64,000 nt of DNA from a virus. The notes below the pieces were generated by a model. It did not search any database. It was given only the letters and a program-made list of their open reading frames with translations, and was not told where the DNA came from. Shown one piece after another: positions 5,123-31,540 of this stretch; position 1 is the stretch's first letter; the number at the start of each line of letters is the position of its first letter. The position numbers and the translations under genes were made by a program. Location of the stretch: positions 1-64,000 of IMG/VR virus record IMGVR_UViG_3300037851_000553; one strand, 5' to 3'.

Positions 5123-5523
5123 AAAATAACAACGATTGTTATCATGATCAACTAGCTAGAATGAAGATGCTGGAAGAACTAAATAATACATCCACGGATT
5201 TTGAATCTGATATTTATAGTCCAACAGAAAGTTATTTTATTGATAAGATTAGAAGATGGCATCACGATAGAAATCTTATCAAAGGTTCTTCGGATAAGGA
5301 TCAGTTTTGTAAGTTAATGCAAGAAGCCGGAGAATTGTCTGACAGTATTTGTAAAGGAAAAAGCGTTGCTGACGATATTGGTGATATGATTGTTGTCTTA
5401 ATTAATATAGCAGAGCGTAATAATTTAACACTAACCCAATGTTTAGAGCAGGCGTGGAATGAAATTAAAGATAGAAGGGGTAGGATGGTTGACGGCGTTT
5501 TCGTCAAGGAGTCTGATACATAA
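5119..5523 (+). CDS. mazG: MazG-like nucleotide pyrophosphohydrolase
   Basis: QEAGELSD and DDIGDMIVVLINIAERNNL helices typical of the MazG/NTP-PPase fold. ATGA-coupled to nrdB. Confidence 0.8.
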   Translation: MKNNNDCYHDQLARMKMLEELNNTSTDFESDIYSPTESYFIDKIRRWHHDRNLIKGSSDKDQFCKLMQEAGELSDSICKGKSVADDIGDMIVVLINIAERNNLTLTQCLEQAWNEIKDRRGRMVDGVFVKESDT

Positions 5524-8140: not shown

Positions 8141-9233
8141 ACCAGAATCAACGGGCGATTTATTGGTTGATGGTATCAATAAAAAATATGGTGCTATTAT
8201 TGAGTCTGGAAGCAGAGTTTTAGAAACGTTGGAAACTTATGATGTTATCAGCATTTCGCCAGCACTTGATATAGCTTTGGGCGGCGGTATCAGAGAGGGT
8301 CAATGTGTTGGTATGACCGGCGATCCAAAAACCGGAAAAACGACCACAGCACTTTATTTTGCGGCAAAGGCTCAAAAACTTGGCAAGCGTGTTTTTTATA
8401 TCAATACCGAGGGGCGTCTTACAAAAGAAAATTTTAAAGGAATAAAAGGTCTTGATATTGAAGCAATTCAAATCGTGCAAGCAACAGACGAAGAACCAAA
8501 AGTTTCTGCTGAAAAATACCTAAACACCCTTGAAACACTTATTAAACAAGAGCCTGGAATTGTCTGTATTGTTGATTCTGCCTCTAATATGGTTCCAGAA
8601 GAAGAACTAGACGGAGAAATAAGAACCGGGGTTCGAAACGCACTACCAAGATTGTTGTCAATGTTCTTTAAAAGAATAAGTGGCGATGTTTCAAGGATGA
8701 GGTCTATAGTTATTTTTATAACACATAATATTGCAAACACAAGCGGCAGCCGTTATGCACCATCCAAAATGTCAGATTGCGGAAACATGTTGCAATATCA
8801 AGTTAGTACAAACATGGTAATAACGCACCGTGGAAAGTGGGAAGTTCCAAAAGAATCTGGAAATCATGTTGGTCAAGTTGCTAATTGGAAAATTTTAACC
8901 TCTGCTGCTGGTGGACGCCCAAATAGCCTTGCAGAAAGCTGGATTAGATATGGGATTGGTATAGATGAAGCACAAGAAATTTGTCATATAGCAACTCAAT
9001 TTGCGTTAATTTCACCAAAAGGTGCTTGGTATACTATTTCGTCTTTTGTAGACAACAAAGACGATCCAACAATTCAGGCATATCTTCGAAAGAACGAGAT
9101 AGATCCAAACAATCAAGAAGAAGTTGAACGTGCTTTTAAGTTCAATGGAATGGATAATCTATCTTCATTTATTACGGAAAACGAAGAGTTACAACAGTTT
9201 TTGGTTCAACAGGTAAAAGATCTTTTACTATGA
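8115..9233 (+). CDS. RecA/UvsX-like recombinase ATPase
   Basis: Walker A GDPKTGKTT. Walker B region IVCIVDSASNMVPEEELDGE resembles RecA VVDSVAAL..EGE. ATG at 8115 is preceded by GAGGAAAA. Confidence 0.8.
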   Translation: MPKKKSSNKPESTGDLLVDGINKKYGAIIESGSRVLETLETYDVISISPALDIALGGGIREGQCVGMTGDPKTGKTTTALYFAAKAQKLGKRVFYINTEGRLTKENFKGIKGLDIEAIQIVQATDEEPKVSAEKYLNTLETLIKQEPGIVCIVDSASNMVPEEELDGEIRTGVRNALPRLLSMFFKRISGDVSRMRSIVIFITHNIANTSGSRYAPSKMSDCGNMLQYQVSTNMVITHRGKWEVPKESGNHVGQVANWKILTSAAGGRPNSLAESWIRYGIGIDEAQEICHIATQFALISPKGAWYTISSFVDNKDDPTIQAYLRKNEIDPNNQEEVERAFKFNGMDNLSSFITENEELQQFLVQQVKDLLL

Positions 9234-9646
9234 AGGTGCTTGGTCTTAACGGTAAAGAATACAATTTAGACTTAAAAAGATATTCAAAGGAACGTTCAAA
9301 TTGTTCTAAGTATCATGTTCGTGCAAGACAGGTCTTATTAGAAAAATTCAATGGATATTCTGTCTACGAAGAAGTGAAGTTGCCAGGAACGGTAAATCCA
9401 GCAAAAAAATCCGTTTTGTATCTTGACTTTTTTATTCCAAATGCTAAACTGGGGGTTGAGGTTCACGGCGAACAACACTATAAATTTATACCATATTTTC
9501 ATAAAACAAAAGCTGGTTGGTTATATTCTCAGATGCGTGATAGACAAAAGCTACAATGGTGCGAATTAAACAACTTAGAATTGATTGTTTTTAGATTTGA
9601 TACGTCCGAAGATTTTTGGAGAAAACAAATTGAGCATTGCTGCTGA
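9230..9646 (+). CDS. DUF559/Vsr-like (PD-(D/E)XK) endonuclease, possible free-standing homing endonuclease
   Basis: LYLDFFIPNAKLGVEVHGEQHY matches the DF....lvIEvDG.qH signature I associate with DUF559/Vsr-fold nucleases. Confidence 0.5.
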   Translation: MKVLGLNGKEYNLDLKRYSKERSNCSKYHVRARQVLLEKFNGYSVYEEVKLPGTVNPAKKSVLYLDFFIPNAKLGVEVHGEQHYKFIPYFHKTKAGWLYSQMRDRQKLQWCELNNLELIVFRFDTSEDFWRKQIEHCC

Positions 9647-10504: not shown

Positions 10505-11962
10505 GTGGACAAACTTTGTGATCTTGGTTCAGAAAGAGCTGTTCTAGCAGGTCTTTTCAATCATGGATTTGATGCCTATGTTGAAATAAACGACCTAATC
10601 ACTCACAACAGCTTTGTACACCAAAACAATCAGATTCTATACAAGTGTATAGAAAAGATACTTCAAGGTGGTGCTACTATAGACCTAGCGTCTATATTAT
10701 CTGCTGCTAATCAACTTAATTTTTCTAATGTTATAAACACAGAGCAAGAATTAGAATACATTCGTTCTTTGATGGATTTTCCCGTCAAACAGGACAACGT
10801 ACCGTTTTTTGCTGCACAAATCAGAAAACTTGAGTTTGCAAGAAACGCAAAAAAAATAGCGAAAAGAATCGAACATAATATTGATGAAATCAATGGTGAT
10901 GAATCCATTGATGATATCATTAGTATGATTGAAACCCCGCTCATTGATTTTTTGCGTGACGATAATACTGGTCAAAAACCCGAACAGTTGGGAGACGACA
11001 TTGAGAACTATTTAGAGTTCTTGATAGAAAATAAATGTGATCAGATTGGATTGTCAACGGGTTTTCCAAGGTTTGACGCGGTTATTGGTGGTGGATTACG
11101 CCGCAAGTGTGTTGATCTTGTGTCTGCACGCCCAGGCGTTGGTAAATCTGTTTTTGCTGATAACGTAGCTTTACACAACGCACGCAAGGGTATTCCAGTA
11201 TTAATGTTGGATACTGAAATGTCAAAAGAAGATCATTTAAACCGTTTGCTTGCACACATTAGCGGAGTGCCCATTCAAGAAATCGCCACGGGTAAGTTTA
11301 CAAACGATCCAGAAAAATTAATTGCTGTGCGTGAGGCTGTTAAAGAAATAAAAAAACTGCCTTATACTTATGTTAGTGTTGCGGGTGCCCCATTTGAAAC
11401 AATTATCAACACCATCAAGCGGTGGATTCTACGCGAAGTTGGGCAAGACGAAAATGGTAAAACCAAAGACTGTCTGGTTATTTACGATTATTTGAAACTC
11501 ATGTCATCTTCTGGCATTACAAACAATCTTCAAGAATATCAGGCTCTTGGATTTCAAATTACAGATTTGCACAACTTGGCTGTCAAATACGATTTTGCTT
11601 GTTTATCATTTGTACAATTAAACCGTGACGGCATCACCAAAGAATCAACCGACACAGTAAGCGGTTCGGATCGTCTTATTTGGTTGTGTACTTCATTTTC
11701 TCAGTTTAAGGTAAAATCTCAAGAAGAAGTTGCTGAGGATGGTCCTCATGGTGGTAATCGTAAAATTGTGACACTAAAAGCACGCCACGGTGCAGGAATG
11801 ATGGAAGGAAATTATATCAACCTAAATATGGTTGGATCGCACGCACAGCTTTTTGAACTTGGAACTAGGGATGAATTACGCAATCAGCCACAAGGAATCA
11901 TTGAGGGTGCAGACGCACCGTTTGAAGAAGATGGTTATGAATGTCCGTTTGATCCAAACTAA
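10505..11962 (+). CDS. dnaB: DnaB-type replicative helicase
   Basis: GTG start. N-terminal SERAVLAGL, Walker A ARPGVGKSV, MLDTEMS, VQLNRD. Confidence 0.92.
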   Translation: MDKLCDLGSERAVLAGLFNHGFDAYVEINDLITHNSFVHQNNQILYKCIEKILQGGATIDLASILSAANQLNFSNVINTEQELEYIRSLMDFPVKQDNVPFFAAQIRKLEFARNAKKIAKRIEHNIDEINGDESIDDIISMIETPLIDFLRDDNTGQKPEQLGDDIENYLEFLIENKCDQIGLSTGFPRFDAVIGGGLRRKCVDLVSARPGVGKSVFADNVALHNARKGIPVLMLDTEMSKEDHLNRLLAHISGVPIQEIATGKFTNDPEKLIAVREAVKEIKKLPYTYVSVAGAPFETIINTIKRWILREVGQDENGKTKDCLVIYDYLKLMSSSGITNNLQEYQALGFQITDLHNLAVKYDFACLSFVQLNRDGITKESTDTVSGSDRLIWLCTSFSQFKVKSQEEVAEDGPHGGNRKIVTLKARHGAGMMEGNYINLNMVGSHAQLFELGTRDELRNQPQGIIEGADAPFEEDGYECPFDPN

Positions 11963-19557: not shown

Positions 19558-21396
19558 TTGTCTCAAATAGATTTTTCAAAGTGCAACTGCGAAAATTCTG
19601 GGTGGTGTAAAACGTTTGACAAGGAAATGCCATCAAACCCCCCAAATTGGCAGTGGTGTCAATCTGCCACAGCAGAAGAGCGTGAAAATTTTTACAAAAA
19701 AAACCCAACAAAATTTTTACAAAGGATAAATAAAGCTGTTGAACCGGTTGAATTTTACGACGAATTACCAGAGATTAAAAGCGATTATGCCGCTTGTGTT
19801 ATTCCGGCAACAAGCGATGCTGCTGAACTGTTAGAAATAACCAGAGATGCTATTATAAAGTATGCAAAAAAATGTGGTGCAGACTACATTGAGTTGACCG
19901 GTAATCAAAATGAAAATTGGCCAATGTCCAATAAATATAGAGTTGAACAGGTTGCAAAAGTTTATAAAAAAACCCTGTATTTAGATTGTGATATTGTTGT
20001 TCGTCATGACTCTCCAAACATTTTTATAACTACGCCTGACGACAAAATATCAGCCTATGATGAGTGGGAGATTTGGGAGTCTAGAAAAGACACAGAGTGG
20101 ATAATCGAAGAACAAAAAATAATATCCAACAAGATGCTTGGTGGGGGTGGGAGCTCATTTGTTACAAATAAAATGCTCAACGGTGGAATCTTGGTGATAC
20201 CACAACGTATGGCACACTATTACAAACAACCAACCAGTGTATATCCTAAACAGTGGTGTTTTGATCAAAATTATTTAACACTTACGTTACCAGAAGATAA
20301 ACTTAATAGATTAAGCTACAAGTTCAACTGTGAATATGCAGACCAAAACTTTTATTCTAAACAAAAAGAATCTTATTTTGTTCATATAAATAATATTAAA
20401 AGATCTGATTCAGAAAAAAGAATAGATTTATTAAAAAAAATAAGTAATTATGTAGAGAATATTGATTCTGATCTGTGGATTCATGAAGATATATCTACTT
20501 CTAAAAAGTATCATAGTTGTAGTTTTGCTATAAAGAGACAGAAAAATGAAAACATTAAACTTAAAAAATACATCATCGAACAACAAGAAACTAAATACAC
20601 AGCAAATGATGTTTCCATTTTGTGTCTTGGGCATAAAAAAGAGCAATTTGATTCTATCAAACCCAGGCCATATCTGAAAAATATTAACTTAAATACTATT
20701 GATGCTGGCGAATTTTCTGGAAACGAGTGGGCAGAAGCAAGGGTGTTTTTGTCTAAAAATAATTTATTTGATTCGGACGCAAAATTTTACGGAATGGTTA
20801 CAGCCTCTTGGAACATGAAGTATTATTCTCAGTGTAGAATTGATGATTTTCATAATTGGTTTTCTGCTAAAGTGTTATTGAATTCTAAACCAGAAGATAG
20901 GGTTGTTCTTTGTGCCGACATGTATTGTTGGTGCAACTGGTTAAATGATAAAACTTGTTATAACAACAATAGAGTGATAAACTCGATTATGGACAAGGAC
21001 TACTATGATAATAAGTTAATATTGAGAAATTTTTTACGACTTATAAACTTTAATAGGAAGATACATAAACGTGTTCCGTTTTCAAACCAAATTATTTGTC
21101 ATAAACACTTGTTTCAGGATCTGGTAAACGAAATAAAAGAAAAAGATATAGCAGGAAAAATAAAATGGTTTATAAAAAAACACAACATAGTTAAGCACTT
21201 GTCTTATCCAGAGGGTCACTTTAAAAATATTCTAAATTATTCGTTAACAAGAGTGGAAGCATATTTTTTTGAAGTTTATACAATTGCGTGGTTCACCACA
21301 AACGATTGTAAAATTATAAGCAACACGACCAGATTAGAAAACTGGTATAGTTATCAAAGTATGACAAAAAGAATTATAAAAAATAAAAGTGAATAA
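19558..21396 (+). CDS. GT8-like glycosyltransferase with an unknown C-terminal domain
   Basis: TTG start. The first ~290 aa are a paralog of 17112-18935 (CNCENSGWC...WQWC, LYLDCDIVV, QWCFDQNYLTLTLP). The C-terminal ~300 aa are unrecognised. Confidence 0.65.
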   Translation: MSQIDFSKCNCENSGWCKTFDKEMPSNPPNWQWCQSATAEERENFYKKNPTKFLQRINKAVEPVEFYDELPEIKSDYAACVIPATSDAAELLEITRDAIIKYAKKCGADYIELTGNQNENWPMSNKYRVEQVAKVYKKTLYLDCDIVVRHDSPNIFITTPDDKISAYDEWEIWESRKDTEWIIEEQKIISNKMLGGGGSSFVTNKMLNGGILVIPQRMAHYYKQPTSVYPKQWCFDQNYLTLTLPEDKLNRLSYKFNCEYADQNFYSKQKESYFVHINNIKRSDSEKRIDLLKKISNYVENIDSDLWIHEDISTSKKYHSCSFAIKRQKNENIKLKKYIIEQQETKYTANDVSILCLGHKKEQFDSIKPRPYLKNINLNTIDAGEFSGNEWAEARVFLSKNNLFDSDAKFYGMVTASWNMKYYSQCRIDDFHNWFSAKVLLNSKPEDRVVLCADMYCWCNWLNDKTCYNNNRVINSIMDKDYYDNKLILRNFLRLINFNRKIHKRVPFSNQIICHKHLFQDLVNEIKEKDIAGKIKWFIKKHNIVKHLSYPEGHFKNILNYSLTRVEAYFFEVYTIAWFTTNDCKIISNTTRLENWYSYQSMTKRIIKNKSE

Positions 21397-22492
21397 ATTA
21401 GACTATATAATTGTTGGTGCTGGTTTGTCTGGTGCTACGTTTGCTAGATATGCAACCGATAGGGGTAAAAAATGCTTGGTTTTAGATAAAAGAAAGCATA
21501 TAGCTGGAAATATTTTTAGCCAAAACGTTGACGGCATCGAAGTTCACAAGTATGGACCCCACATTTTTCACACCAACTCTGAAAAAATTTGGAACTACGT
21601 AAATCAGTTTGCCGCTTTCAATGATTACAGACACAAGGTGCTGGTGAATTGTGGAGATGAGTTTTTCTCATTTCCAATCAATTTAAAAACACTAGAATCT
21701 TTGTGGGGTATCAAGGATGATGCAGAATTGATTAAAAAATTTGAAAACGGCAAGTCCAAACATAAACCCAAAGAAAATCTAGAAGATTGGGCTATAGCAG
21801 AGGTTGGTGAAGAAATCTATCGTAAGTTGATTTATGGATATACAAAAAAACAATGGGGTGTTTCACCGGCAAAATTACCACCATCAATAATAAGCAGAAT
21901 ACCGGTTAGACAAAACCGTAATGATGATTATCATAATTGCAAATTTTCTGGTATTCCGTTGTGCGGATACACAGATATGGTTGCGAATATGCTTTTTGGA
22001 ATAGAAGTTCAACTAGAAACAGATTATTTTCAAAAACGGTATTATTGGGATTCTATAGCAAAGAATATTATCTATACCGGGCCAATTGATGAATTCTTCG
22101 ATTACAAATACGGAGAAATGAAGTGGCGTTCTTTAAGATTTCAAGAACAAAGAATAAACCAGACGCTTGTTCAGCAAGTGGCACAAATAAATTTTGTACA
22201 AGAAAACGTTCCGTTTACCAGAAGCGTTGAGCACAAACACTTTATACCGTCTACACTTTTGGATAAAAAGTATACCATTATAACCAAAGAATATCCAGAA
22301 AAATATGTTCCTGGTTTAGAAAAATATTACCCGGTATGTAGCTGTTCTCAGGAAAATCTTCTGGCGAAGTATAAAAAACTTATACCTAGTAAATTTATTT
22401 TTATTGGTAGATTGGCCAAGTTTAAATATTACAACATGGATCAAGCGATTGCTTTGTCTCTATCTAAGGCTAGACTTGTAGTTGGAAACTAA
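21389..22492 (+). CDS. glf: UDP-galactopyranose mutase
   Basis: YIIVGAGLSGATFA, HKYGPHIFHT, YTKKQWG, IIYTGPIDEFFDY, SVEHKHF, GRLAKFKYYNMDQ. Collinear with E. coli Glf as I recall it. GTG start. Confidence 0.93.
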   Translation: MNKLDYIIVGAGLSGATFARYATDRGKKCLVLDKRKHIAGNIFSQNVDGIEVHKYGPHIFHTNSEKIWNYVNQFAAFNDYRHKVLVNCGDEFFSFPINLKTLESLWGIKDDAELIKKFENGKSKHKPKENLEDWAIAEVGEEIYRKLIYGYTKKQWGVSPAKLPPSIISRIPVRQNRNDDYHNCKFSGIPLCGYTDMVANMLFGIEVQLETDYFQKRYYWDSIAKNIIYTGPIDEFFDYKYGEMKWRSLRFQEQRINQTLVQQVAQINFVQENVPFTRSVEHKHFIPSTLLDKKYTIITKEYPEKYVPGLEKYYPVCSCSQENLLAKYKKLIPSKFIFIGRLAKFKYYNMDQAIALSLSKARLVVGN

Positions 22493-22516
22493 TTTTACAA
22501 AAACCTGAAAATCCTA

Positions 22517-22545
22517 TTGACTTAACACCGGCTTTAGACTATCAT
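22517..22545 (+). promoter_or_regulatory. sigma70-type promoter
   Basis: TTGACT, 17 nt spacer, TATCAT. The spacer ends in TTTAGAC. Confidence 0.45.
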
Positions 22546-22622
22546 ATGGTGGTCGGAAACCGTGTCGTGGAACCAAGAACATTAAGAAGCCAAAATATTA
22601 TTCTTGTCGAGAGATAGCCTAT

Positions 22623-23168
22623 TTGCATACGCTACCAAGAAATGGCGTTGGTGCAGAACTTGGTGTTTGTAAGGGCGAAAACGCTGTTAACCTATTGCAC
22701 TATAGTAGAGCCAAAAAACTCTACTTGGTAGACCCCTGGGACAACAAAGAACCGCTTGGAGAAGAGGGAAACCCAAATCATATCACAGCACCAGAATATT
22801 TTTTGTTTGAAAAATATGGAAGAAATTATCAAACTTTGGTACAAAAGATATTCAAAGACGAAGTTGAGTCTGGTAAAGTTGTAACTATTCGTAGCTACGC
22901 AAAGCCATGGCTAGATAGTTGCAACATATTGTTTGACTGGATTTACATAGACACTACACACACGTTTGACGAGACCTTCGAAACGGTTGAGAGCAGCGTT
23001 AATGTCCTAAAAAAGGGCGGGGTACTTGGGATTCACGATTATGAGACTGGGTTTCCTTGCGGATGGGACACAATGACCCCGGTTATGTATTTTATGGGAA
23101 CATTTTTATATCCGGTAGCCTGGGCTGGCGTTGATCGCGGCATAACACTATTTTGTAAAAAAATATAG
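22623..23168 (+). CDS. class I SAM-dependent methyltransferase
   Basis: AELGVCKGENAV, LYLVDPW, IYIDTTHTFDET, GIHDY. Paralog of 32293-32922. TTG start is uncertain because the frame is open from 22521 with no ATG. Confidence 0.6.
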   Translation: MHTLPRNGVGAELGVCKGENAVNLLHYSRAKKLYLVDPWDNKEPLGEEGNPNHITAPEYFLFEKYGRNYQTLVQKIFKDEVESGKVVTIRSYAKPWLDSCNILFDWIYIDTTHTFDETFETVESSVNVLKKGGVLGIHDYETGFPCGWDTMTPVMYFMGTFLYPVAWAGVDRGITLFCKKI

Positions 23169-23176
23169 GACAAAAA

Positions 23177-24805
23177 ATGAAGTGGTTTCCTCTCTGTAAT
23201 TATACACACTATTCTTTACAAATTGGCTTTTCCAAACCAAAGCAATTAGCCAAGAAATGCTCTGAAAATTCTTATCCAGCGTGCGGAATCGCTGATTACA
23301 AAAGCATTTCCGGTGCCGTTTCTTTTTATCAAGCTTGTCTGGAAAACAACATCAAGCCAATTATTGGTTGTTCGTTTGATGGGTTTTCTCTTTTTGCAAA
23401 AAATAAGAAGGGTTGGCTTGAATTAATTCGTATAGCATCTACCATAGACGCCGATGGAAACGTCGATAAACCAATGCTAATAAAACTAGCAAACAACGGC
23501 AACATGATTTGCGTTGCAGAAAACGAATTTTTATCTCCTATAACAGGAAGCGACTTTTACGTAAAAAGCGAAGCGTTTCCAAACACGTATTATGTGGAAA
23601 AAGAACAAGCAGAACTCCATAGAATTTTGTTGTGCTCTGGTATGAAAACAACTTTACCAGATATAAACAAACAGCTAGGAAACAGAAAGAGTGTAGACAA
23701 TCAGATTTTCTTTGAGAGCAATGATTTTTATCTTAAAAATCGCATGGAGATATCAAAGATGCTGACAGACGATCCAAAAATGGAAGTCTTTGAGGAAATT
23801 TTTAATAAGATTGAGAATTATAACATTTTAAATAAGCCTATGTTGCCAAATTTTCCAACACCAAACGGGGTCACAGAGCGTGATTATCTAGAAAAACTCT
23901 GCAACGCCGGGTGGAATAGAATGGTAAAAAACGGTGAAATAACAGACCAAAATAAAGACGAATACCACAGACGCTACAAGCACGAATTTGAAGTTATTGA
24001 AAATGCAAATCTTTTTGGTTATTTCTTGATCGTGTGGGACATTTTGAACTATTGTAGAACCAACGGCTGGATGGTTGGTCCTGGCCGTGGAAGTTCTGCT
24101 GGCTGTTTGATTTCCTATTTGATTGGCATTACTTTAATTGATCCAATTAAATACGACCTATTGTTTGAGAGATTTTATAACCCTGGTCGCAACACAGAAG
24201 ATCATATATCGCTTCCCGATATTGATGTAGATGTTCCAACGGGAAAACGTGACCAAATTATCAATGAATTAAAAGACAAATATGGTCACGACAATGTTAG
24301 TCAAATGTGTACGTTTGGCCGTTTGCAGGGTCGTAGTGCCATAAAAGAAGTGCTACGTGTAAATAACGCTTGTGGTTTTGGTGAAATGAACGAAATAACT
24401 AAATATATCCCAGACGAAGCTGCTATTTCGGATCAATTGGCTGAAATGGACGAAGAAGATCGTAGCATAATTCGTTGGGCACTATTGAACCACGCAGACG
24501 ATTTGCGTGATTATTGTTATATTGACCAAGAAGGTAATTTGCGTGGAGACTATTCAGAATTTTTTGAACAAGCCATTCAAATTGAAGGGACGTTTAAGAC
24601 TCAGGGCAAACACGCTGCCGGTGTCGTTATCTCAAAAGAGCCTCTGTATCTAGTGTGCCCAATGGTCAATCAAAAACATGGTACAGAAAAAATTGCAGGA
24701 TTAGAAATGGCAGACCTTGAGGCTTTGGGTCATGTTAAGTTTGATGTATTGGGGATAAATCTCCTTGATAAATTGATGTATATCGAGGATTTACTAGCAA
24801 AATGA
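23177..24805 (+). CDS. dnaE: DNA polymerase III alpha subunit, N-terminal fragment (PHP-like plus palm)
   Basis: GPGRGSSAGCLISYLIGIT, PDIDVDV, GKHAAGVVIS, VKFDVLGI. Ends at the point equivalent to just after E. coli KFDFLGL. Confidence 0.92.
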   Translation: MKWFPLCNYTHYSLQIGFSKPKQLAKKCSENSYPACGIADYKSISGAVSFYQACLENNIKPIIGCSFDGFSLFAKNKKGWLELIRIASTIDADGNVDKPMLIKLANNGNMICVAENEFLSPITGSDFYVKSEAFPNTYYVEKEQAELHRILLCSGMKTTLPDINKQLGNRKSVDNQIFFESNDFYLKNRMEISKMLTDDPKMEVFEEIFNKIENYNILNKPMLPNFPTPNGVTERDYLEKLCNAGWNRMVKNGEITDQNKDEYHRRYKHEFEVIENANLFGYFLIVWDILNYCRTNGWMVGPGRGSSAGCLISYLIGITLIDPIKYDLLFERFYNPGRNTEDHISLPDIDVDVPTGKRDQIINELKDKYGHDNVSQMCTFGRLQGRSAIKEVLRVNNACGFGEMNEITKYIPDEAAISDQLAEMDEEDRSIIRWALLNHADDLRDYCYIDQEGNLRGDYSEFFEQAIQIEGTFKTQGKHAAGVVISKEPLYLVCPMVNQKHGTEKIAGLEMADLEALGHVKFDVLGINLLDKLMYIEDLLAK

Positions 24806-24846
24806 GTATAATGGTATGTCAACCTTAACTTTTACGGAGTCATACC

Positions 24847-25521
24847 ATGAACAAAAAAGAGCTAGAGACTTTGATCTACACTGAAAACAAAACTCAAAGA
24901 GAGGTAGCAAAAGAAAAGGGGGTGAGCGAGGCTTGTGTGTCAAAATGGATGAAAAGACACGGCATCGTCAAAACATCAGAAAGAAGATGGATTGGAAAAA
25001 CCTATGGATCGTTAACTGTTTTGAGCGTTTCTGGAAAAGACAAGTATTCCCACGCCATTTTAGACTGTGTATGTGAGTGTGGAACCAAAATATCTGTATT
25101 AAATCACAGCCTTACTAGCGGTAACACAAAAACGTGCGGTTGCAAATCTAGAAAACGAGGTAGTCAACACCCACATTTCAAAGGGTTCGAGAGGATTCAA
25201 GCTAGTCATTGGGGGCAATACATCTCTGGTGCGACCAAGAGAGGTCTAGATTTTGACATTACTATGGAATACGCCTGGGGGATTTACATTAACCAAAACC
25301 GTTTGTGTGCCTTATCGGGTCAGCCTATCTATTTTCCACGAACGAGAAAACAAAAAACACAATCCACAGCATCGTTGGACAGAATAGACAGCAGCAAAGG
25401 ATACATACCAGGGAATGTTCAATGGATTCATAAAGAGATCAACAGGATGAAATCAAGCCTGTCAGAAAAAGATTTTTTACAATTCATCAGGCAAATCGCT
25501 GAGTACAAGCAGCTTGTATGA
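24847..25521 (+). CDS. HNH homing endonuclease with N-terminal HTH
   Basis: TQREVAKEKGVSEACVSKWM (HTH), a Cys-rich CVCECG...CGC segment, and SLDRIDSSKGYIPGNVQWIHKEINRMK (HNH-type). Confidence 0.85.
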   Translation: MNKKELETLIYTENKTQREVAKEKGVSEACVSKWMKRHGIVKTSERRWIGKTYGSLTVLSVSGKDKYSHAILDCVCECGTKISVLNHSLTSGNTKTCGCKSRKRGSQHPHFKGFERIQASHWGQYISGATKRGLDFDITMEYAWGIYINQNRLCALSGQPIYFPRTRKQKTQSTASLDRIDSSKGYIPGNVQWIHKEINRMKSSLSEKDFLQFIRQIAEYKQLV

Positions 25522-25523
25522 GT

Positions 25524-25565
25524 TTGGACAAACTTATGTACATTGAGGAACTAATCAAACAATGA
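25524..25565 (+). pseudogene. displaced duplicate of the dnaE-N 3' end
   Basis: Encodes LDKLMYIEELIKQ*, compared with LDKLMYIEDLLAK* at 24764-24805. Its TGA overlaps the exonuclease ATG (ATGA). Confidence 0.6.
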
Positions 25566-26236
25566 ATAGGGATATTGTCGTTTTCGATTTTGAAACGGGT
25601 GGAAGAAACCCGCTTCGTTGTCAACCCACACAAATTGCTGCTATCGCATTAGACGGTAGAAACTTTACACCAAAGGGCGAGTTTAATAGCTTGATGCGTC
25701 CGATATTGGATGATGAAAAAGCTATCGCTCTTGGTCTTGATCCGGTTGAAGATGAAGCACTGAAAAAAACAAGAAAGACCAGGGATGAACTTGCCAAAGC
25801 ACCACTACCAAAAACCGTGTGGAAAAAATTCTCTTCTTTTGTAGAACGTTACAATTGGCAGGGTACACCATATTTTGCACCAATTCCGTGCGGATTTAAT
25901 ATAATAGGATTTGATATGCCCATTGTTAACCGTTTATGTAAAGAATATGGACCCTGGGATGAAAAAAGATCGTGTCATAAATTGTTTCACCAAATTTATA
26001 AAATTGATGTAATGGATGATATCTGGCTGTGGACAGAGGGTGATCCAAATGTAAAATCTATAAGCATGGATTCACTTAGAGAGAGGATGGGGCTTTCTAT
26101 GGAAAATGCTCACGATGCCTTGCAGGACGTTAAAGATATAGCGAACATCTTTATCAAGCTGCAAAAGTCAAGAAGAGCAATCTATCGTAATATGAAGTTT
26201 GACAAAGCGTTCGCAGACGGAAAACTATTTGTATAG
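25562..26236 (+). CDS. DnaQ-like DEDDh 3'-5' exonuclease
   Basis: Exo I FDFETGG, Exo II GFNIIGFDMPIV, Exo III HDALQDV. Confidence 0.85.
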   Translation: MNRDIVVFDFETGGRNPLRCQPTQIAAIALDGRNFTPKGEFNSLMRPILDDEKAIALGLDPVEDEALKKTRKTRDELAKAPLPKTVWKKFSSFVERYNWQGTPYFAPIPCGFNIIGFDMPIVNRLCKEYGPWDEKRSCHKLFHQIYKIDVMDDIWLWTEGDPNVKSISMDSLRERMGLSMENAHDALQDVKDIANIFIKLQKSRRAIYRNMKFDKAFADGKLFV

Positions 26237-26248
26237 GAGCTAATAACA

Positions 26249-26515
26249 ATGTGTAATTTGCTTAAGAAAGTAGAAAACAAAAACAAATACAAATCAGCCG
26301 ACCCATTTTATTATCATTTGAGGGATGGGGATGTTGATTATCTTTTTTCTGATTATCAACTAGAAGCAGCAAAGAATCGTGCTCTTAGCAATCCAGAAGA
26401 TGTTGCAGATTATGAAGAGCCACCAAATGATTTTTGGGTTGGATTTGGTTCTGGTGTGGTTGCTTGTAGTTTCCTTGTTGCTTTTATTTATATTCTTATT
26501 CGCCTGTTGAGTTAA
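26249..26515 (+). CDS. small tail-anchored membrane protein
   Basis: 88 aa. C-terminal TM VGFGSGVVACSFLVAFIYILIRLL. Confidence 0.45.
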   Translation: MCNLLKKVENKNKYKSADPFYYHLRDGDVDYLFSDYQLEAAKNRALSNPEDVADYEEPPNDFWVGFGSGVVACSFLVAFIYILIRLLS

Positions 26516-26516
26516 G

Positions 26517-28082
26517 ATGATTGATTTTAATGATAAGAAAACTTGGTCTCTATATTGGAACGGACTGACAAAGGGCGTTTTCCAACTGGAAAGCAATCTT
26601 GGTAGGTCTTGGTCAAAAAAATTAGCACCAGAGAACATTGAAGAACTGGCAGCACTTATCGCCTTGATCAGGCCGGGGTGTTTGAAGGCTATCATTGATG
26701 GAAAGTCAATGACACAAAGATTTATTGATCGTAAGCACAAAAGAGAGCCTATTACTTATATTCACGACTCTTTGGAAAGTATTCTAAAAACAACCTATGG
26801 AGTTCTTGTCTACCAAGAGCAGGCAATGAAAATTGCTGTCAAACTTGCTGGGTTTAATGAACAAGAGGCAGACAATCTTCGTAAAGCCATTGGCAAAAAG
26901 AAGGCCAAGCTGATGATTGAAATTCGCGAACAATTTATAAAGGGTTGTTTAAAGGTTGGAATAGTAGATGAAGATACGTCTAAAGAGATTTTTAGCTGGA
27001 TTGAAAAATCTTCAAGATACTCTTTCAACAAGTCTCATGCCGTGGCATATGCAGTAAACTCATACTGGTCTGCTTGGTATAAAGCAAATCACACAGAGGA
27101 ATTTTTTACATCATATTTATACCACTCCAATGAAAAACAAGACCCTCATGAAGAAATTTATGAATTAGTTTCTGAGGCAAAATTGTTTGATATACATGTA
27201 AAGATATCAAAATTGTCATCTTTTAGTGAAAAATTTAAAAACAATAAAGATGGAATCTGTTTTGGTATAAAAGATATTAAAGGTTTGGCCGGTGTAAATG
27301 GGGACAACGTAATTTTTGTCATTCAAGAAACATCCAATATAATTAAAAAGAACCCAAAAGATTTTACGTGGATGGACGTTTTGATTTTTCTTTCTCCAAA
27401 AATCAATTCAACGGCTTTCAAGTCTTTGGCTAGCGTTGGGTTTTTTTCAACTTTATCAACGGGTGTCAGCAGAAACAGGGCTTTGTATGAATATTTGATC
27501 TTTAAAGAATTGACAAAAACTGAACAATCTTGGATTTTAGATAATTACGAAAAAAAACAGTGGAACAGCCTATATGACTGTCTAACTTCTTTGGCACCGG
27601 TAAAGAAACTTGGCGGTGGAACAAGCAACCATAGTCGTAGTCAAATAGTTTCAAATGAAGCAGAAATGGTGCTACATCCACCATATAAACTTTCAGACGA
27701 TCCATCTTGGATAGTCGAAATGGAAAAAAAGTTTTTGGGTTGTCCGGTCTCGTTGTCAAAGATTGATGCCGTTGACACATCTGTTGCGAACACTACTTGC
27801 AAAGACGTTTTAAATGGAAAACGTGGAAAAGACATATGTATAGTAGCAAGCGTAACAAGGGTTGCAAATCATAAGATAAAGAAAAAGGGAAGCAAACAGT
27901 TTGGTAAATTAATGTCGTTTTTAACGATTGAAGATTCAACCTGTTCATTGGATAGCGTTGTTGTGTTTCCAGACGCAAGAGAAAAGTATCAATATATTTT
28001 ATATGAAGGAAATAATCTTATGCTTTGTGGAGAAGTAGAAAATGGAAATTCTTTTGTTGTTGACAAAATTCATGAAATTTAA
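26517..28082 (+). CDS. dnaE: DNA polymerase III alpha subunit, C-terminal fragment (fingers plus OB-like tail)
   Basis: VFQLES, ALIRPG, FIDRKH, VLVYQEQAM, LRKAIGKKK, YSFNKSHAVAYA. Collinear with E. coli DnaE from about the IPLDDKKSF region onward. Confidence 0.92.
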   Translation: MIDFNDKKTWSLYWNGLTKGVFQLESNLGRSWSKKLAPENIEELAALIALIRPGCLKAIIDGKSMTQRFIDRKHKREPITYIHDSLESILKTTYGVLVYQEQAMKIAVKLAGFNEQEADNLRKAIGKKKAKLMIEIREQFIKGCLKVGIVDEDTSKEIFSWIEKSSRYSFNKSHAVAYAVNSYWSAWYKANHTEEFFTSYLYHSNEKQDPHEEIYELVSEAKLFDIHVKISKLSSFSEKFKNNKDGICFGIKDIKGLAGVNGDNVIFVIQETSNIIKKNPKDFTWMDVLIFLSPKINSTAFKSLASVGFFSTLSTGVSRNRALYEYLIFKELTKTEQSWILDNYEKKQWNSLYDCLTSLAPVKKLGGGTSNHSRSQIVSNEAEMVLHPPYKLSDDPSWIVEMEKKFLGCPVSLSKIDAVDTSVANTTCKDVLNGKRGKDICIVASVTRVANHKIKKKGSKQFGKLMSFLTIEDSTCSLDSVVVFPDAREKYQYILYEGNNLMLCGEVENGNSFVVDKIHEI

Positions 28083-28111
28083 TTGGTATAAATTAGAATT
28101 TAGACTATTAT
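28083..28111 (+). promoter_or_regulatory. sigma70-type promoter ahead of the long glycan operon
   Basis: TTGGTA, 17 nt spacer, TATTAT. The spacer ends in TTTAGAC. Confidence 0.45.
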
Positions 28112-28146
28112 AAGTTATACTATCATTTCACAAATATGGAGGAATC

Positions 28147-28602
28147 ATGAGGTCTTTGAATTCGGAAAGAAAGGTTGTGGTAAAAAAGACAAGGCTTCTT
28201 AATGCATTAAGAAAAAATCTTGAGAAGCATATCAACGATTATTTAGAAGCTGTCGCGGGATATAAAGAAGAAGCAAAGGTAAAGCTAGAAGCTGAAAAAG
28301 AAAAGGCTATTGAAAAACTGTCGCGTGCTTATACAAAAACTCTTGGTGAGATTGATAACTTTGATCCTGAAAAATCAACAGACGTTATAGTTTTTTGCGA
28401 TTCGATCCGATTTGATTTGGTAGCCCCAAAGAATTTTTCTGATGCTTATCAACAGGCAATAGAAATGTTGGAGTGGGAAGAAAGAGACGAAGTAGAATTG
28501 ACGACCTATGAATTTCGATGTTTTGTTATGGATAAGTGGGATTGGATGGAAGATTTTATAAAGAGCAATTCTAGATATCTATTAAAGAACAAGGCTCTAT
28601 GA
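28147..28602 (+). CDS. hypothetical protein
   Basis: 151 aa, GGAGG RBS, coiled-coil-like N-terminal half. Confidence 0.45.
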   Translation: MRSLNSERKVVVKKTRLLNALRKNLEKHINDYLEAVAGYKEEAKVKLEAEKEKAIEKLSRAYTKTLGEIDNFDPEKSTDVIVFCDSIRFDLVAPKNFSDAYQQAIEMLEWEERDEVELTTYEFRCFVMDKWDWMEDFIKSNSRYLLKNKAL

Positions 28603-28826: not shown

Positions 28827-30515
28827 ATGAGGCGTAAGCGTGTACTTTTTTGTAGTGAAGCTACATTTTTAAATACTGGATACGCGACGTATACCAGAGA
28901 AATTTTAAATCAACTACATAACACTGGAAAATATGAAATAGCTGAAATGGGTGCCTACGGTCAGAGAAACGACCCAAGGGCGGTTGAAATCCCATGGAAA
29001 TATTATGGTGTTGCACCAAACACAGAGTGTGAGCCAAAGGCAACAGAACAAGAGCTACAGGCTTATAATTCTTCTGGGACAAACCAATTTGGTGAATGGA
29101 TTTTTGAGCATGTTTGCTTGGATTTTTTGCCAGACATTGTTTGTGATATTCGCGATTTTTGGATGCTTGACTTTGCAGAAAGATCCCCATATAGAAATTA
29201 CTTTAGGTGGGCTATAATGCCAACGGTTGACGCACGACCACAAGCAAGACAATGGATTGCTACATATGCTAGTGCAGACGCTGTTTTGACCTATTCTGAT
29301 TGGGCTGGCGGTGTTTTGTCTGATCAATCTGGTGGTAAGATAAAGTATTGGGGAAGTTCTCCACCCTCTGCACACCACGCGTATAGACCAGTTCCAGACA
29401 AGCGAGCACACAAGCTACAATATGGAATAAATCCAGATTACAAAATAATCGGAACGGTTATGCGTAATCAAAGACGAAAATTGTATCCAGATTTGTTCGA
29501 AGCGTTTAGGAAATTTTTAGACAAAGCAAAGAGCAAACAGTATTATCTATATTGTCACACTTCATACCCAGATCTTGGTTGGGATATTCCAGAACTTATC
29601 TTGCAATACGACCTTGCAGCACACGTACTGTTTACATATATTTGTCCAGAAACAAAGAAACCATTTCCTTCACTGTTTAAGGGGGCCGTTGCTCAATCGC
29701 CCTTTACGGGGCGTTGGGGGTCTACTCTTTCGAATGTGAAGAACGGGGTGTCATATGAGAATTTATCAAATATTATAAATTTGTTTGATCTTTATGCTCA
29801 ATATGCAAACTGTGAAGGTTTTGGGCTTCCACAGGTTGAAGCCGCTGCCTGTGGAGTACCCGTTTGTGGTACAGATTATTCTGCTATGGAAAGCGTGCTT
29901 CGTCAGCTTGGGGGTCATCCAATTAGACCAGCCGCTCTTTACAAAGAACTTGAAACGGGGTGTTTTCGTGCTGTACCAAACAACGAAGAAGCCGCACGCC
30001 ATTTTTTGAAATTCTTCGAAGAAACAAGCGAAGAAGGTAGAAAAGCAATTGGTTTACAAACAAGAAAAAATTTTGAGAAATATTTTAGATGGGACATGAG
30101 TGCCGGAAAGTGGGCTGCTATTTTTGATAGCTTTGAAGAAATTCCAATCGAAAGAACGTGGGCGTCTCCACCGAAAATTCATCAACCATCACCGCCACTG
30201 ACAAAAGAACAGGTGAACGGTTCTGATCCAACGCAGTTGGCAAGATGGTTGATAGTAGAAGTTCTTGGAGACGTTTCAAAATTGAATACTTTTTTTGAAT
30301 CAAGGCTTGCTAGAGACTTAACATATCGTTCTTCGACTAGCTCTACAGGTGGAATGTATTTCAACGAATCTTCTGCTGCTTTTGAGGGTATTAATTTTCG
30401 TTTACACTTCGATTTTGACATTGCTTACAATCAACTAAAGGCCCAGTGTGAAAGAAGAAACGCTTGGGAACAGCGTCGTGTACAGGTAATGCAAGAAAGG
30501 AGACTGCTACGATGA
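28827..30515 (+). CDS. GT4-like (GT-B) glycosyltransferase
   Basis: CEGFGLPQVEAAACGVPVCGTDYSAMESV (E-x7-E region). Confidence 0.8.
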   Translation: MRRKRVLFCSEATFLNTGYATYTREILNQLHNTGKYEIAEMGAYGQRNDPRAVEIPWKYYGVAPNTECEPKATEQELQAYNSSGTNQFGEWIFEHVCLDFLPDIVCDIRDFWMLDFAERSPYRNYFRWAIMPTVDARPQARQWIATYASADAVLTYSDWAGGVLSDQSGGKIKYWGSSPPSAHHAYRPVPDKRAHKLQYGINPDYKIIGTVMRNQRRKLYPDLFEAFRKFLDKAKSKQYYLYCHTSYPDLGWDIPELILQYDLAAHVLFTYICPETKKPFPSLFKGAVAQSPFTGRWGSTLSNVKNGVSYENLSNIINLFDLYAQYANCEGFGLPQVEAAACGVPVCGTDYSAMESVLRQLGGHPIRPAALYKELETGCFRAVPNNEEAARHFLKFFEETSEEGRKAIGLQTRKNFEKYFRWDMSAGKWAAIFDSFEEIPIERTWASPPKIHQPSPPLTKEQVNGSDPTQLARWLIVEVLGDVSKLNTFFESRLARDLTYRSSTSSTGGMYFNESSAAFEGINFRLHFDFDIAYNQLKAQCERRNAWEQRRVQVMQERRLLR

Positions 30516-31540
30516 GAAGCGTGATAGTTACCGGTTGTGCTGGATTGTTTGGAAGTCATTTTAGTCGCCATCTTATAAAGCGTGGTTATAAAGTGGTTGG
30601 AATTGATGATCTTAGCGGTGGATACGCCGACTACTTGCCGTTGGATGGGCCAGATCGTTTTGAGTTTTGGCCAATTGATTTGTCTGACGGAAAGTGGTCC
30701 CCCAAATGTTTAGAGCATATCTTCATTGATCCCAAACGAGATGAAATTGCTGCATGTTTTCATTTTGCCGCTTATGCCGCAGAAGGATTGTCACCGTTTA
30801 TCCGGCGTTTTAATTATAGCAACAACGTTTTGGCCAGTGCCAACGTTATCAACGCTTGCATCAACCGTGGTGTTAAATTAATTTTTACTTCTTCTATGGC
30901 CGTTTACGGTAATCAACTGGCACCGTTTACAGAGTCAATGGAGCCAAAGCCTATTGATCCATACGGCGTTGCAAAGTATGCTGTTGAAATGGACATTAAA
31001 ATAGCAGCTTCACAACACAAGCTAGAGTATACAATAGTTCGCCCACACAACGTTGTTGGCATCTATCAAAATATTTGGGACAGATATCGTAATGTGGCAG
31101 GTATCTTTATACGCAAGGTTCTAGACGGAGAACCAATGTTGATTTATGGTGACGGCGAACAAACTCGTGCGTTTTCTGATATCAAATATTACATGGAACC
31201 ACTTGAGAAAATGATAGACGCACGCGGTGTTGAATCTAATCGTACTGTGAACATTGGTGCTGACAAAGTATACACCATCAACGAATTGGCCGATACTGTA
31301 CAGCGTGTGGCCAAAAAGAATGGTTATGAAGCAACAAAAAAATACGTAGAGGGACGACACGAAGTAAAACACGCACACTGTGATCATTCTGTTGCTAAAT
31401 CTATTTTTGGTTTTCGTGATGACACCAATCTTGAAGAATTGATAGATGAAATGTTCAAGTGGGCCATGTTACAACCCAAGCGTGATCAAAAGAAGATGCC
31501 GTATGAAGTGGAACAGGGAATCTATGACTACTGGAAGTAA
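30512..31540 (+). CDS. NAD-dependent sugar epimerase/dehydratase (extended SDR)
   Basis: VTGCAGLFGSH Rossmann motif, SSMAVYG, YGVAKYAVE (YxxxK). ATGA overlap and AAGGAG RBS. Confidence 0.85.
   Translation: MRSVIVTGCAGLFGSHFSRHLIKRGYKVVGIDDLSGGYADYLPLDGPDRFEFWPIDLSDGKWSPKCLEHIFIDPKRDEIAACFHFAAYAAEGLSPFIRRFNYSNNVLASANVINACINRGVKLIFTSSMAVYGNQLAPFTESMEPKPIDPYGVAKYAVEMDIKIAASQHKLEYTIVRPHNVVGIYQNIWDRYRNVAGIFIRKVLDGEPMLIYGDGEQTRAFSDIKYYMEPLEKMIDARGVESNRTVNIGADKVYTINELADTVQRVAKKNGYEATKKYVEGRHEVKHAHCDHSVAKSIFGFRDDTNLEELIDEMFKWAMLQPKRDQKKMPYEVEQGIYDYWK

Follow-up and report, generated by a model that had tools for sequence, protein, structure and literature searches.

In fungal mitochondria, mobile endonuclease open reading frames (mORFs) give rise to gene hybrids: examples are atp6 of Allomyces macrogynus and atp6, atp9, cox2, and nad3 of Glomus sp. 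(PMC3630166, citing Paquin et al. 1994). The Glomus atp6 copies are 63.5% identical as nucleotides and 91% identical as amino acids (PMC3630166). In phages, endonuclease genes are found with split genes, as for nrdA and mobE of Aeh1, gene 39/60 and mobA of T4, and gene 43 of phage 25 with a seg gene (PMC2988022). Here, we compare these systems with a locus from an uncultured marine phage, in positions 1 to 64,000 of the IMG/VR record IMGVR_UViG_3300037851_000553. We call this 64-kb stretch of DNA the window, and all coordinates refer to it unless another locus is named. In the window, the end of dnaE-N, which encodes the N-terminal piece of a split alpha subunit of DNA polymerase III (Pol III), recurs after a free-standing gene for an HNH-like endonuclease. 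We believe that this repeat is the scar of a free-standing PacI-like HNH homing-endonuclease cassette, acquired at the junction between dnaE-N and the exonuclease gene exo when Pol III alpha was already split. We put the probability of this explanation at about 70%.

A gene end repeated after an HNH-like gene

The first gene of the locus, dnaE-N (23177..24805), encodes 542 amino acids (aa) with the PHP and palm domains of Pol III alpha. It matches Pfam's PHP, all of DNA_pol3_alpha (1-260/260), and positions 245-612 of PHROG 405. (dnaE-N and all of the other features of the locus, through dnaE-C, are on the + strand.) We will refer to its functional last 13 codons and stop codon, LDKLMYIEDLLAK*, as copy 1 (24764..24805; asterisks indicate stop codons). 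Judging from the sequence and from matching the tails, copy 1 probably arrived with the cassette. It is followed by a leader of 41 nucleotides (nt; 24806..24846) and by the HNH-like gene (24847..25521). Copy 2, LDKLMYIEELIKQ* (25524..25565), starts two bases past the stop codon of the HNH gene and is outside any long open reading frame (ORF). Its TGA overlaps the ATG, at 25562, of exo (25562..26236), which encodes a DnaQ-like 3'-5' exonuclease (Pfam RNase_T; PHROG 192, "DNA polymerase exonuclease subunit").

The codons of copy 1 are ctt gat aaa ttg atg tat atc gag gat tta cta gca aaa tga, and those of copy 2 are ttg gac aaa ctt atg tac att gag gaa cta atc aaa caa tga. The initial annotation, which was made from the sequence alone, reported that the end of dnaE-N recurs after the HNH gene, with nine of ten amino acids the same and six synonymous codon pairs. 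We read the sequence in exactly the same way. Over the first 10 codons, 9 of 30 nt and 1 of 10 aa are different between the copies; over all 13 codons, 14 of 39 nt and 4 of 13 aa are.

We are confident that the repeat is real. Nothing else in the window, in any of the six frames, matches LDKLMYIEDL at 7 or more of 10 positions, and neither does anything in 20 shuffles of the 64 kb. When the 45 nt before exo were aligned to native dnaE-N tails, they scored 51, while the highest score from 200 shuffles was 26. We also looked for the duplication in independent assemblies. The 920 nt from 24701 to 25620 are identical in three of them (Logan SRR12687326, Logan SRR12687606, and JGI 3300037307), and two of these carry 22-24 single-nucleotide polymorphisms (SNPs) relative to the window outside of this region, so an assembly artefact is excluded. 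The shortness of the repeat is all that speaks for a chance resemblance or a chimera, and given the shuffles and the three assemblies, we consider either to be virtually impossible.

To compare the two copies with other genomes, we collected more than 130 related loci from IMG/VR, from a metagenome scan, and from contig look-ups (labelled L001 and so on). Among GenBank phages, the locus had no match by megablast, and the matches from tblastn were below 31% identity.

In the absence of coding constraint, 9 nucleotide changes in 10 codons would rarely lead to just one amino acid change and no stop codon (P <= 5e-6). Because of this pattern, we conclude that both copies served as functional gene ends while they diverged, each in its own genome, and that they came to lie together only afterwards. 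The pattern also bears on another possibility: that insertion of the HNH gene duplicated the 42 nt on the spot, by target-site or tandem duplication, and that the copies then drifted apart. A target-site duplication would directly flank the insert, as this repeat does. But copy 2 is not in any gene, so it should not have been constrained in this way; the 70% nucleotide identity of the copies is what we see between genomes; and the haplotype of copy 1 is found in the cassettes of other lineages (see below). Duplication in place is therefore highly improbable.

The initial annotation proposed that the synonymous differences are recoding that makes the cassette immune to its own endonuclease. Pairs of sampled relatives are 65-78% identical at the nucleotide level, so 70% is the background level of divergence, and ordinary divergence between donor and recipient explains the differences. 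Recoding for immunity is not needed, although a role for individual positions, such as -13 (described below), is plausible.

The best nucleotide matches to the two copies are of different kinds. For copy 1, the best matches are the tails of cassette-linked alleles: L009 (29/33 nt), followed by L013, L036, and L038 (27/33 nt each). For copy 2, the best match is the native tail of L110 (29/33 nt and 11/11 aa), which lacks the HNH gene. Copy 2 also uses the codons gac, ctt, and tac, which are typical of naive alleles, and it keeps the native overlap of stop and start codons with exo. Copy 2 is thus best read, from these tail comparisons, as the pre-insertion (recipient-type) gene end, and the initial annotation's view of it as the native-type end seems to be correct.

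The junction and the cassette in related loci

The gene order of dnaE-N, exo, (a small ORF), and dnaE-C is maintained across about 100 loci. In the window, dnaE-C (26517..28082) encodes the C-terminal piece of Pol III alpha, from the fingers onward; it matches Pfam's DNA_pol3_finger from profile position 25 and positions 626-1055 of PHROG 405. We resolved 100 junctions at the end of dnaE-N, without counting the window's own copies. In 73 of these, dnaE-N adjoins exo directly, and in 70 of the 73 the stop codon of dnaE-N overlaps the ATG of exo (by -4, -5, -8, -11 or -16 nt). Among the tails of the direct junctions are LLDKLM-x-IKEL(I/V)..., LLDKLMYIEELINES* (L110), DKLMYIEELIEKDKNE* (L108/109), and LDKLMYIEDLVKEQNE* (L106). 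In the relatives without the HNH gene, the K-E codons of the tail are AAGGAG, 5-8 nt before the ATG of exo, and thus make up exo's Shine-Dalgarno sequence.

In all 73 of the direct junctions, none of which has the HNH gene, exo lies between the two halves of dnaE. The closest relatives of the window's exo (87-88% identity) also have direct junctions and no HNH gene. The number of direct junctions, and the overlap in 70 of them, indicates that both the split of dnaE and the coupling of dnaE-N to exo are ancestral, and that the HNH gene did not split the polymerase. This agrees with the initial annotation, which had proposed that dnaE-N was originally coupled to exo. It had also described homing into a polymerase gene, but the HNH gene lies at a junction between genes, and the polymerase had been split before it arrived. 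Similarly, it had predicted that relatives without the HNH gene would have the tail of copy 2, fused to exo. The direct coupling to exo was found, but tails like copy 1 occur in these relatives as well (LDKLMYIEDLV in L106), so this comparison does not discriminate between the two copies.

In an outgroup (L029/L032, 43% identity), dnaE is contiguous across the window's split point and exo is upstream. In L029 (5312-10687, and also in L032), dnaE is a single ORF through PHP, palm, and fingers, and is then broken by a split intein. The Hint module of this intein is at aa 792-872, and a free-standing ORF (8715-9602) with NUMOD3 and DUF559 (Vsr-like) domains lies between the pieces. L017 (8331-10676) has a contiguous intein in dnaE-C at RPG|C (C-VSGDTLV ... 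IVHN|C), which is a different site from that of the L029 intein. In L030 (5350-5614), dnaE-N has a 263-nt insert between ...FERFY..GRN and VSLPDIDIDV; this might be a small intron, a frameshift, or an assembly problem. We had considered whether the overlapping tblastn segments in L017, L029/L032, and L030 might be further duplications, but those in L017 and L029 are due to inteins, and the one in L030 is due to the unexplained 263-nt insert.

Unrelated inserts are found at the dnaE-N/exo junction in other loci (L004/L064/L065, L012, L019/L066, L026-L028, L058, and L114-L118). They include an ORF with a YopX domain, an ORF with DUF4326, a 166-aa ORF that does not belong to any family, a 76-aa ORF, and inserts of about 740 nt. 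The junction is a general hot spot for accessory genes. L119 has a TnpB-like gene (Cas12f1-like_TNB; 308-1666) just upstream of dnaE-N, and it has a gene from the Endonuclease_7 family (4887-5309) between exo and dnaE-C.

The HNH gene itself behaves like a mobile element with a preferred site. We examined eight HNH homologs with genomic context (100, 83, 73, 70, 62, 54, 53, and 50% identity), and all of them are directly 3' of dnaE-N; wherever the contig extends far enough, they precede exo. In an analysis of three-taxon site patterns, the window's HNH gene groups with that of L036, while the window's dnaE-N leans towards L001 (p = 5e-4). Similarly, the HNH gene of L001 groups with that of L119, even though the dnaE-N of L119 is the outgroup (p = 5e-8). 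The phylogenies of HNH and dnaE-N thus conflict, which points to horizontal spread.

The site also seems to have been occupied more than once. The decayed allele in L009 contains just a degenerate leader and a stretch that we call spacer 2 (66 nt). L013 and L047 have a 190-nt remnant of a second type of HNH gene, and L001 has nested elements. Degenerate and lost copies like these fit with a homing gene's cycle of invasion, decay, and loss. Leftovers of the second type behind a window-type HNH gene indicate serial invasions of one site. The second subtype (43-46% identical, C-terminal half) is itself present at the dnaE-N/exo junction in L016, L061-L063, L068, and L073. Its remnants are found in L013/L047 and in L001 (8688-8831), and they follow the window-type HNH gene in L001 and L036.

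The clearest view of the cassette's flanks comes from close relatives. L036, which has the HNH gene, and L009, which has lost it, are 98-99% identical over 300 aa to L011 and L010, which lack it. Between L036 and L011, there are just 6 mismatches in 545 aligned nt columns before a cluster of changes at -25, -22, -16, -13, -7, -4, and +4 (numbered from the ATG codon in LDKLM), and the changes continue on through the tail. On this left flank, all of the changes are synonymous except for F->Y and the variable end of the tail. Beyond the cassette, exo has changes from +5 to +53, and then identity resumes. In the alignment of the two loci, these differences mark a co-conversion tract that flanks the cassette on both sides, and this nearly identical pair, with and without the cassette, reveals the tract base by base.

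We also asked how dnaE-N's nucleotides vary between 11 distinct cassette-linked alleles and 56 distinct direct alleles. Position -13, where the first of the two Leu codons in N-L-L-D ends, is C in 9 of the 11 cassette-linked alleles but in just 1 of the 56 direct alleles (p = 1.2e-8). Positions -16, -7, -3, -1, and +3 are likewise associated with linkage to the cassette, and the same positions distinguish L036 from L011. In the window, this cassette-linked synonymous haplotype spans 24758..24781 (aaT ctC ctt gaT aaA ttg atg tAt), and copy 1 carries it. Position -13 corresponds to the C at 24763, and the duplication begins immediately to the right of this C (left edge at 24764 for copy 1 and 25524 for copy 2). 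Together with the tract in L036, these associations support the initial annotation's suggestion that the cassette travels with a recoded end of dnaE. We predict that the target region is in the N-L|L-D-K-L-M codons of dnaE-N, with the synonymous change of CTT to CTC as a candidate mark of resistance.

We had considered a shared 15-mer, gataaattgatgtat, as proof of co-conversion, but its first 12 nt are also present in L132 and L135, which lack the HNH gene, and this weakens the argument. A sliding comparison of the window's dnaE-N with 14 relatives could not have revealed a long co-conversion tract: none of the relatives is close, synonymous sites are saturated, and identity is therefore flat at 65-78%.

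Another locus has a related repeat. In L038, the HNH gene ends with an in-frame repeat of the last six codons of dnaE-N, which encode KELIGN (4661-4678 versus 3939-3956). The two sequences match at 16 of 18 nt, both differences are synonymous, and none of 2000 shuffles gave an equal match. L038 thus has another scar from this type of event, though a smaller one, and L001 has a more decayed version (KELI). More broadly, we tried to read the 3' end of the HNH gene (KQLV*ATGA) as an older junction between a native tail and exo. Except in L038, the similarity was not significant, and an ending of the form Y-x-N/K-L is general in the HNH family.

The leader is part of what is shared. The GTATAAT motif and the 41-nt leader are conserved in L001, L036, L038, and L119. 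In the window, the leader can form a hairpin with arms at 24811-24818 and 24841-24848 (-10.3 kcal/mol, z = -2.15), whose 3' arm takes in the last part of GGAG as well as the AU from the start codon of HNH. For the close alleles of the leader, the consensus from RNAalifold is a stem of 10 bp, one of which is compensatory, and the distant alleles in L128 and L131 have equivalent stems with different sequences. The hairpin is predicted to hide the ribosome-binding site and the start codon of the HNH gene, which would limit its translation from read-through mRNA. This resembles the self-limiting expression of T4's I-TevI, of mobE, and of the cassettes in marine fractured genes. The conserved TATAAT might have been a sigma-70 promoter, but we found no -35 partner for it, and the motif is absent from the rest of the window.

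The HNH gene does not appear to be intron-encoded, as each of the two neighbouring genes has a stop codon and a start codon of its own. A search of 22500-28500 with Rfam, at E <= 1, found no group I or group II intron, nor any other credible family.

The 224-aa protein has an N-terminal helix-turn-helix (HTH), a cluster of Cys residues, and a beta-beta-alpha core. We found no HNH domain in it with Pfam or NCBIfam, and no match to its sequence in the PDB. It does match PHROG families that are annotated as "HNH endonuclease" or "endonuclease" (E = 1e-24 to 1e-13), including PHROG 3322, 374, and 1035 (E = 1e-24 to 1e-17). In an alignment of 69 members of the family, the Cys cluster is invariant, and there is a motif of the form T-A-S-L-D-R-I-D...G-Y...N-x-Q-W-x-H-K-x-x-N-x-x-K. 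D178, Y186, and N190 are invariant. So is D178-R179, with Arg where the general-base His would be in a canonical HNH nuclease, so the canonical D-H motif is absent. The AlphaFold (AF2) model has a predicted local distance difference test (pLDDT) score of 92, and its strands at 175-179 and 191-195, followed by a helix at 196-202, form the beta-beta-alpha core. The leading hits from Foldseek against the PDB are all HNH nucleases: PacI is first, and the others include HNH domains of Cas9, Gme HNH, and T4 endonuclease VII. For PacI (PDB 3ldy), the E value is 5.9e-3, the TM-score is 0.33-0.49, and the sequence identity is 20%. Based on the model, the protein probably has a PacI-like HNH fold, and it is a putative nuclease.

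PacI, the best structural neighbour, has a beta-beta-alpha-metal fold with Cys-bound zinc and lacks the canonical general-base His; it uses Tyr as the general base, and Asp and Asn hold the metal (PMC4081073). The invariant D178, Y186, and N190 of the window's protein match this Tyr/Asp/Asn set. By analogy, Y186 could be the general base. PacI differs in being a restriction enzyme, while the window's protein has an HTH added at its N-terminus, and its gene behaves like a mobile one. This PacI-like HNH family was previously unannotated, and across phages it is loyal to one gene junction, down to about 50% identity.

How the cassette might have arrived, and what became of copy 2

We propose that the mobile unit comprises a 3' stretch of the donor's dnaE-N (copy 1, which is now the working end and includes the stop codon), the 41-nt leader, and the HNH ORF. 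The HNH enzyme would cut or nick naive alleles near the N-L|L-D-K-L-M codons, which are the most conserved part of the region. Repair of the double-strand break would then copy the donor's tail, leader, and HNH gene into the recipient. Usually, a second exchange would occur within exo, as for L036 and L011, and co-conversion would cover about 25-70 nt on the dnaE-N side and about 50 nt on the exo side. In the lineage of the window, the right-hand join would instead be just behind the HNH stop codon, at the recipient's second Leu codon, 13 codons upstream of the recipient's stop codon. In other words, the window might combine one-sided homologous repair with an illegitimate join, so that the recipient-type end (copy 2) survived. 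Copy 2 would no longer code for DnaE and would persist as the initiation region of exo. If the target were wholly within copy 2 and the start of exo, then the phage would cut itself, and therefore the site should extend to the left of 25524, or else copy 2 is naturally resistant. We infer the nuclease activity, the target near the N-L|L-D codons, the one-sided join, and the ribosome-binding role of copy 2.

Several observations weigh against this explanation. First, the collections contain no close sibling that lacks the HNH gene, so copy 2 is unproven as this genome's own end. (No naive sibling with the tail of copy 2 turned up: the search for exo homologs found nothing above 88% identity, and degenerate DNA patterns for ...DKLMYIEELI(KQ*) had no match in IMG/VR or in GTDB genomes.) For the same reason, we cannot agree with the initial annotation that the event is datable, as the nearest relatives are at most 88% identical for exo and at most 80% identical for dnaE-N. 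Second, the cassette-linked alleles are not phylogenetically independent, so the p-values for the associations are optimistic. Third, the 12-mer gataaattgatg is also found in L132 and L135, and part of the haplotype may reflect shared ancestry. Fourth, GAGGA is 12 nt from exo's ATG in the window, as compared to about 5-8 nt in native alleles. Fifth, nuclease activity is only predicted, with R179 in place of the canonical first His, no HNH match from Pfam, and a weak E value from Foldseek (5.9e-3).

Finally, the 5' end of the window's exo has variants that are associated with the cassette: G at +8 (an Arg codon, agG), which is present in 0 of 47 direct alleles, and C at +23 (a Phe codon, ttC), which is present in 6 of the 47. 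G at +8 is also found in the cassette-linked alleles of L001, L013, L036, and L038. (One-codon indels in L119, L125, and L128 confound the association analysis for the 5' end of exo, so we could use only +8 and +23.) These variants suggest that the right flank was converted too, and that copy 2 may have come with the cassette. In that case, an earlier host was where the scar formed, and everything from tail 1 through the leader and the HNH gene to tail 2 later homed into the window's lineage as one unit, by homologous exchange within dnaE-N and exo. That dnaE-N and exo differ in their relative branch lengths also fits with this scenario. But it rests on two diagnostic positions in exo, and copy 2 is not present in any other cassette that we sampled, including the closest ones (L036/L037, 83% identity). 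Indeed, among 20 distinct types of insert-bearing junctions, a remnant like copy 2 is found only in the window. Overall, we view transfer of copy 2 with the cassette as unlikely, though deserving of attention, and the founding event would be unchanged.

If the scar formed in the window's own lineage, as we prefer, then why was copy 2 retained? Given its GAGGA (25545-25549) and its overlap of stop and start codons, copy 2 was probably kept as the translation-initiation region of exo. The other alleles with cassettes or former cassettes share a conserved block of about 35 nt before exo, which includes AGGAA and ends with AGGAAATAA(C/T)T-ATG. Because all of these alleles keep the block, it appears that a newcomer always spares the 35-45 nt before exo's ATG. 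In L016, L013, and L001, the block is the 3' end of the second type of HNH gene. More broadly, in essential operons, a junction where stop and start codons overlap limits the places at which a selfish gene can settle. We also considered whether spacer 2, as seen in the other cassette alleles, might derive from a native tail that has decayed, but its local alignment scores were not above those of shuffled sequences (12-183 of 200 shuffles reach them). All that spacer 2 has in common with copy 2 is ACTTAT...CATT...AGGAA, which is suggestive but unproven.

Copy 2 is also within a mini-ORF, as predicted from the sequence (25518..25565; 15 codons, MSLDKLMYIEELIKQ*). Its ATG at 25518, which the initial annotation missed, overlaps the HNH stop codon (gtATGA), and its TGA overlaps the ATG of exo (caATGA). 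Translation of exo, which encodes the essential proofreading exonuclease, might therefore depend in part on ribosomes that have read HNH, via a relay from the HNH stop and ATG through the 15 codons to the next stop and ATG. We are quite doubtful of this. If it is true, then deleting the HNH gene along with the remnant would reduce the expression of exo, the selfish gene would be hard to lose, and the phage would be translationally "addicted" to the homing endonuclease. A related reading is that the mini-ORF is under selection, either as a relay that couples the synthesis of exo to the translation of HNH, or because it encodes a free peptide that mimics the tail of DnaE-N. The overlaps at both ends and the intact frame would fit. 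But the ATG at 25518 is not preceded by a Shine-Dalgarno sequence; the leader hairpin, which is predicted to limit HNH translation, weakens the case for a relay; a recent event would explain the intact frame equally well; and the three assemblies show no variation there by which selection could be judged. We think that selection on the mini-ORF is very improbable.

Between exo and dnaE-C, and outside the scar, lies an ORF of 88 aa (26249..26515) whose C-terminal segment is hydrophobic. It has no family match; some relatives have a weakly conserved version (37-44%), while others lack it. Elsewhere in the window (1723-3975, 10505-11962, 19558-22492, and 28827-31540), there is a module for replication and nucleotide metabolism, including the large subunit of ribonucleotide reductase and a DnaB-like helicase. 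This module is interleaved with genes for glycosyltransferase, UDP-galactopyranose mutase, and methyltransferase, on a parent contig of about 173 kb. NCBI attributes a related exo protein to a "SAR202 MAG" (metagenome-assembled genome), which is probably due to mis-binning.

Comparison with known systems

Of the systems that we compared, the fungal mORFs are the closest precedent, with the same kind of scar. In the fungal hybrids, an endonuclease ORF brought a foreign C-terminal segment that is now the expressed end of the gene, and the native C-terminus was left downstream and matches the relatives; copies 1 and 2 would be the equivalents in the window. In both cases, the two copies are far more similar as protein than as DNA. 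As in the mORF hybrids, copy 1 is in frame and completes the 542-aa dnaE-N, including the stop codon, and the copies differ mainly at synonymous positions. The fungal cases differ in that they are from an organelle and involve LAGLIDADG or GIY-YIG endonucleases, while the window is from a phage, has a PacI-like HNH protein, and duplicates only 13 codons. Also, unlike in the fungal cases, the window's leftover abuts the next essential gene and, through the overlap of stop and start codons, is probably that gene's ribosome-binding region.

The mobE, segB, and segG genes of T4-like phages, which are known for "intronless homing," are similar in other ways: they are free-standing nuclease genes between replication genes, they are distributed sporadically, and their flanks are co-converted (PMC2988022, PMC2790892). 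The free-standing endonucleases of these phages also have a leader hairpin or an arrangement of promoters that restricts their own translation (PMC2988022, PMC2790892). But in the T4-like cases, the flanks are replaced instead of duplicated, and the window's protein is from another family, which is not covered by Pfam, and its cleavage and homing are predicted.

The split genes of T4-like phages are another parallel, as the gene for a replication enzyme is broken up and an endonuclease gene lies between its pieces. In the window, the split was clearly not caused by the HNH gene. Gene 43 of phage 25 is similar in this respect, as the endonuclease is proposed to have invaded a gene that was already split (PMC2988022).

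In the marine "fractured genes" (Dassa et al. 2009, PMC2677866), which include dnaE among other replication genes, the cassette supplies the stop for the upstream piece and the start signals for the downstream piece, as it does here. The fractured genes differ in that their pieces carry split-intein halves. We found no split-intein halves or Hint domains at the window's split: just 16 aa follow the palm domain, and the fingers begin at residue 2 of dnaE-C. The outgroup (L029/L032) does have a true fractured dnaE, as described by Dassa et al. 2009, and L029 has the Hint and Intein_splicing domains.

Overall, this type of scar is already documented in fungal mitochondria, and the window is a clean example from a phage, without any new mechanism. 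With an HNH family loyal to one junction, a nearly identical pair that reveals the co-conversion tract, and one lineage in which the displaced gene end probably survived, the locus and its relatives provide an unusually legible record of intron-less homing in uncultured marine phages.

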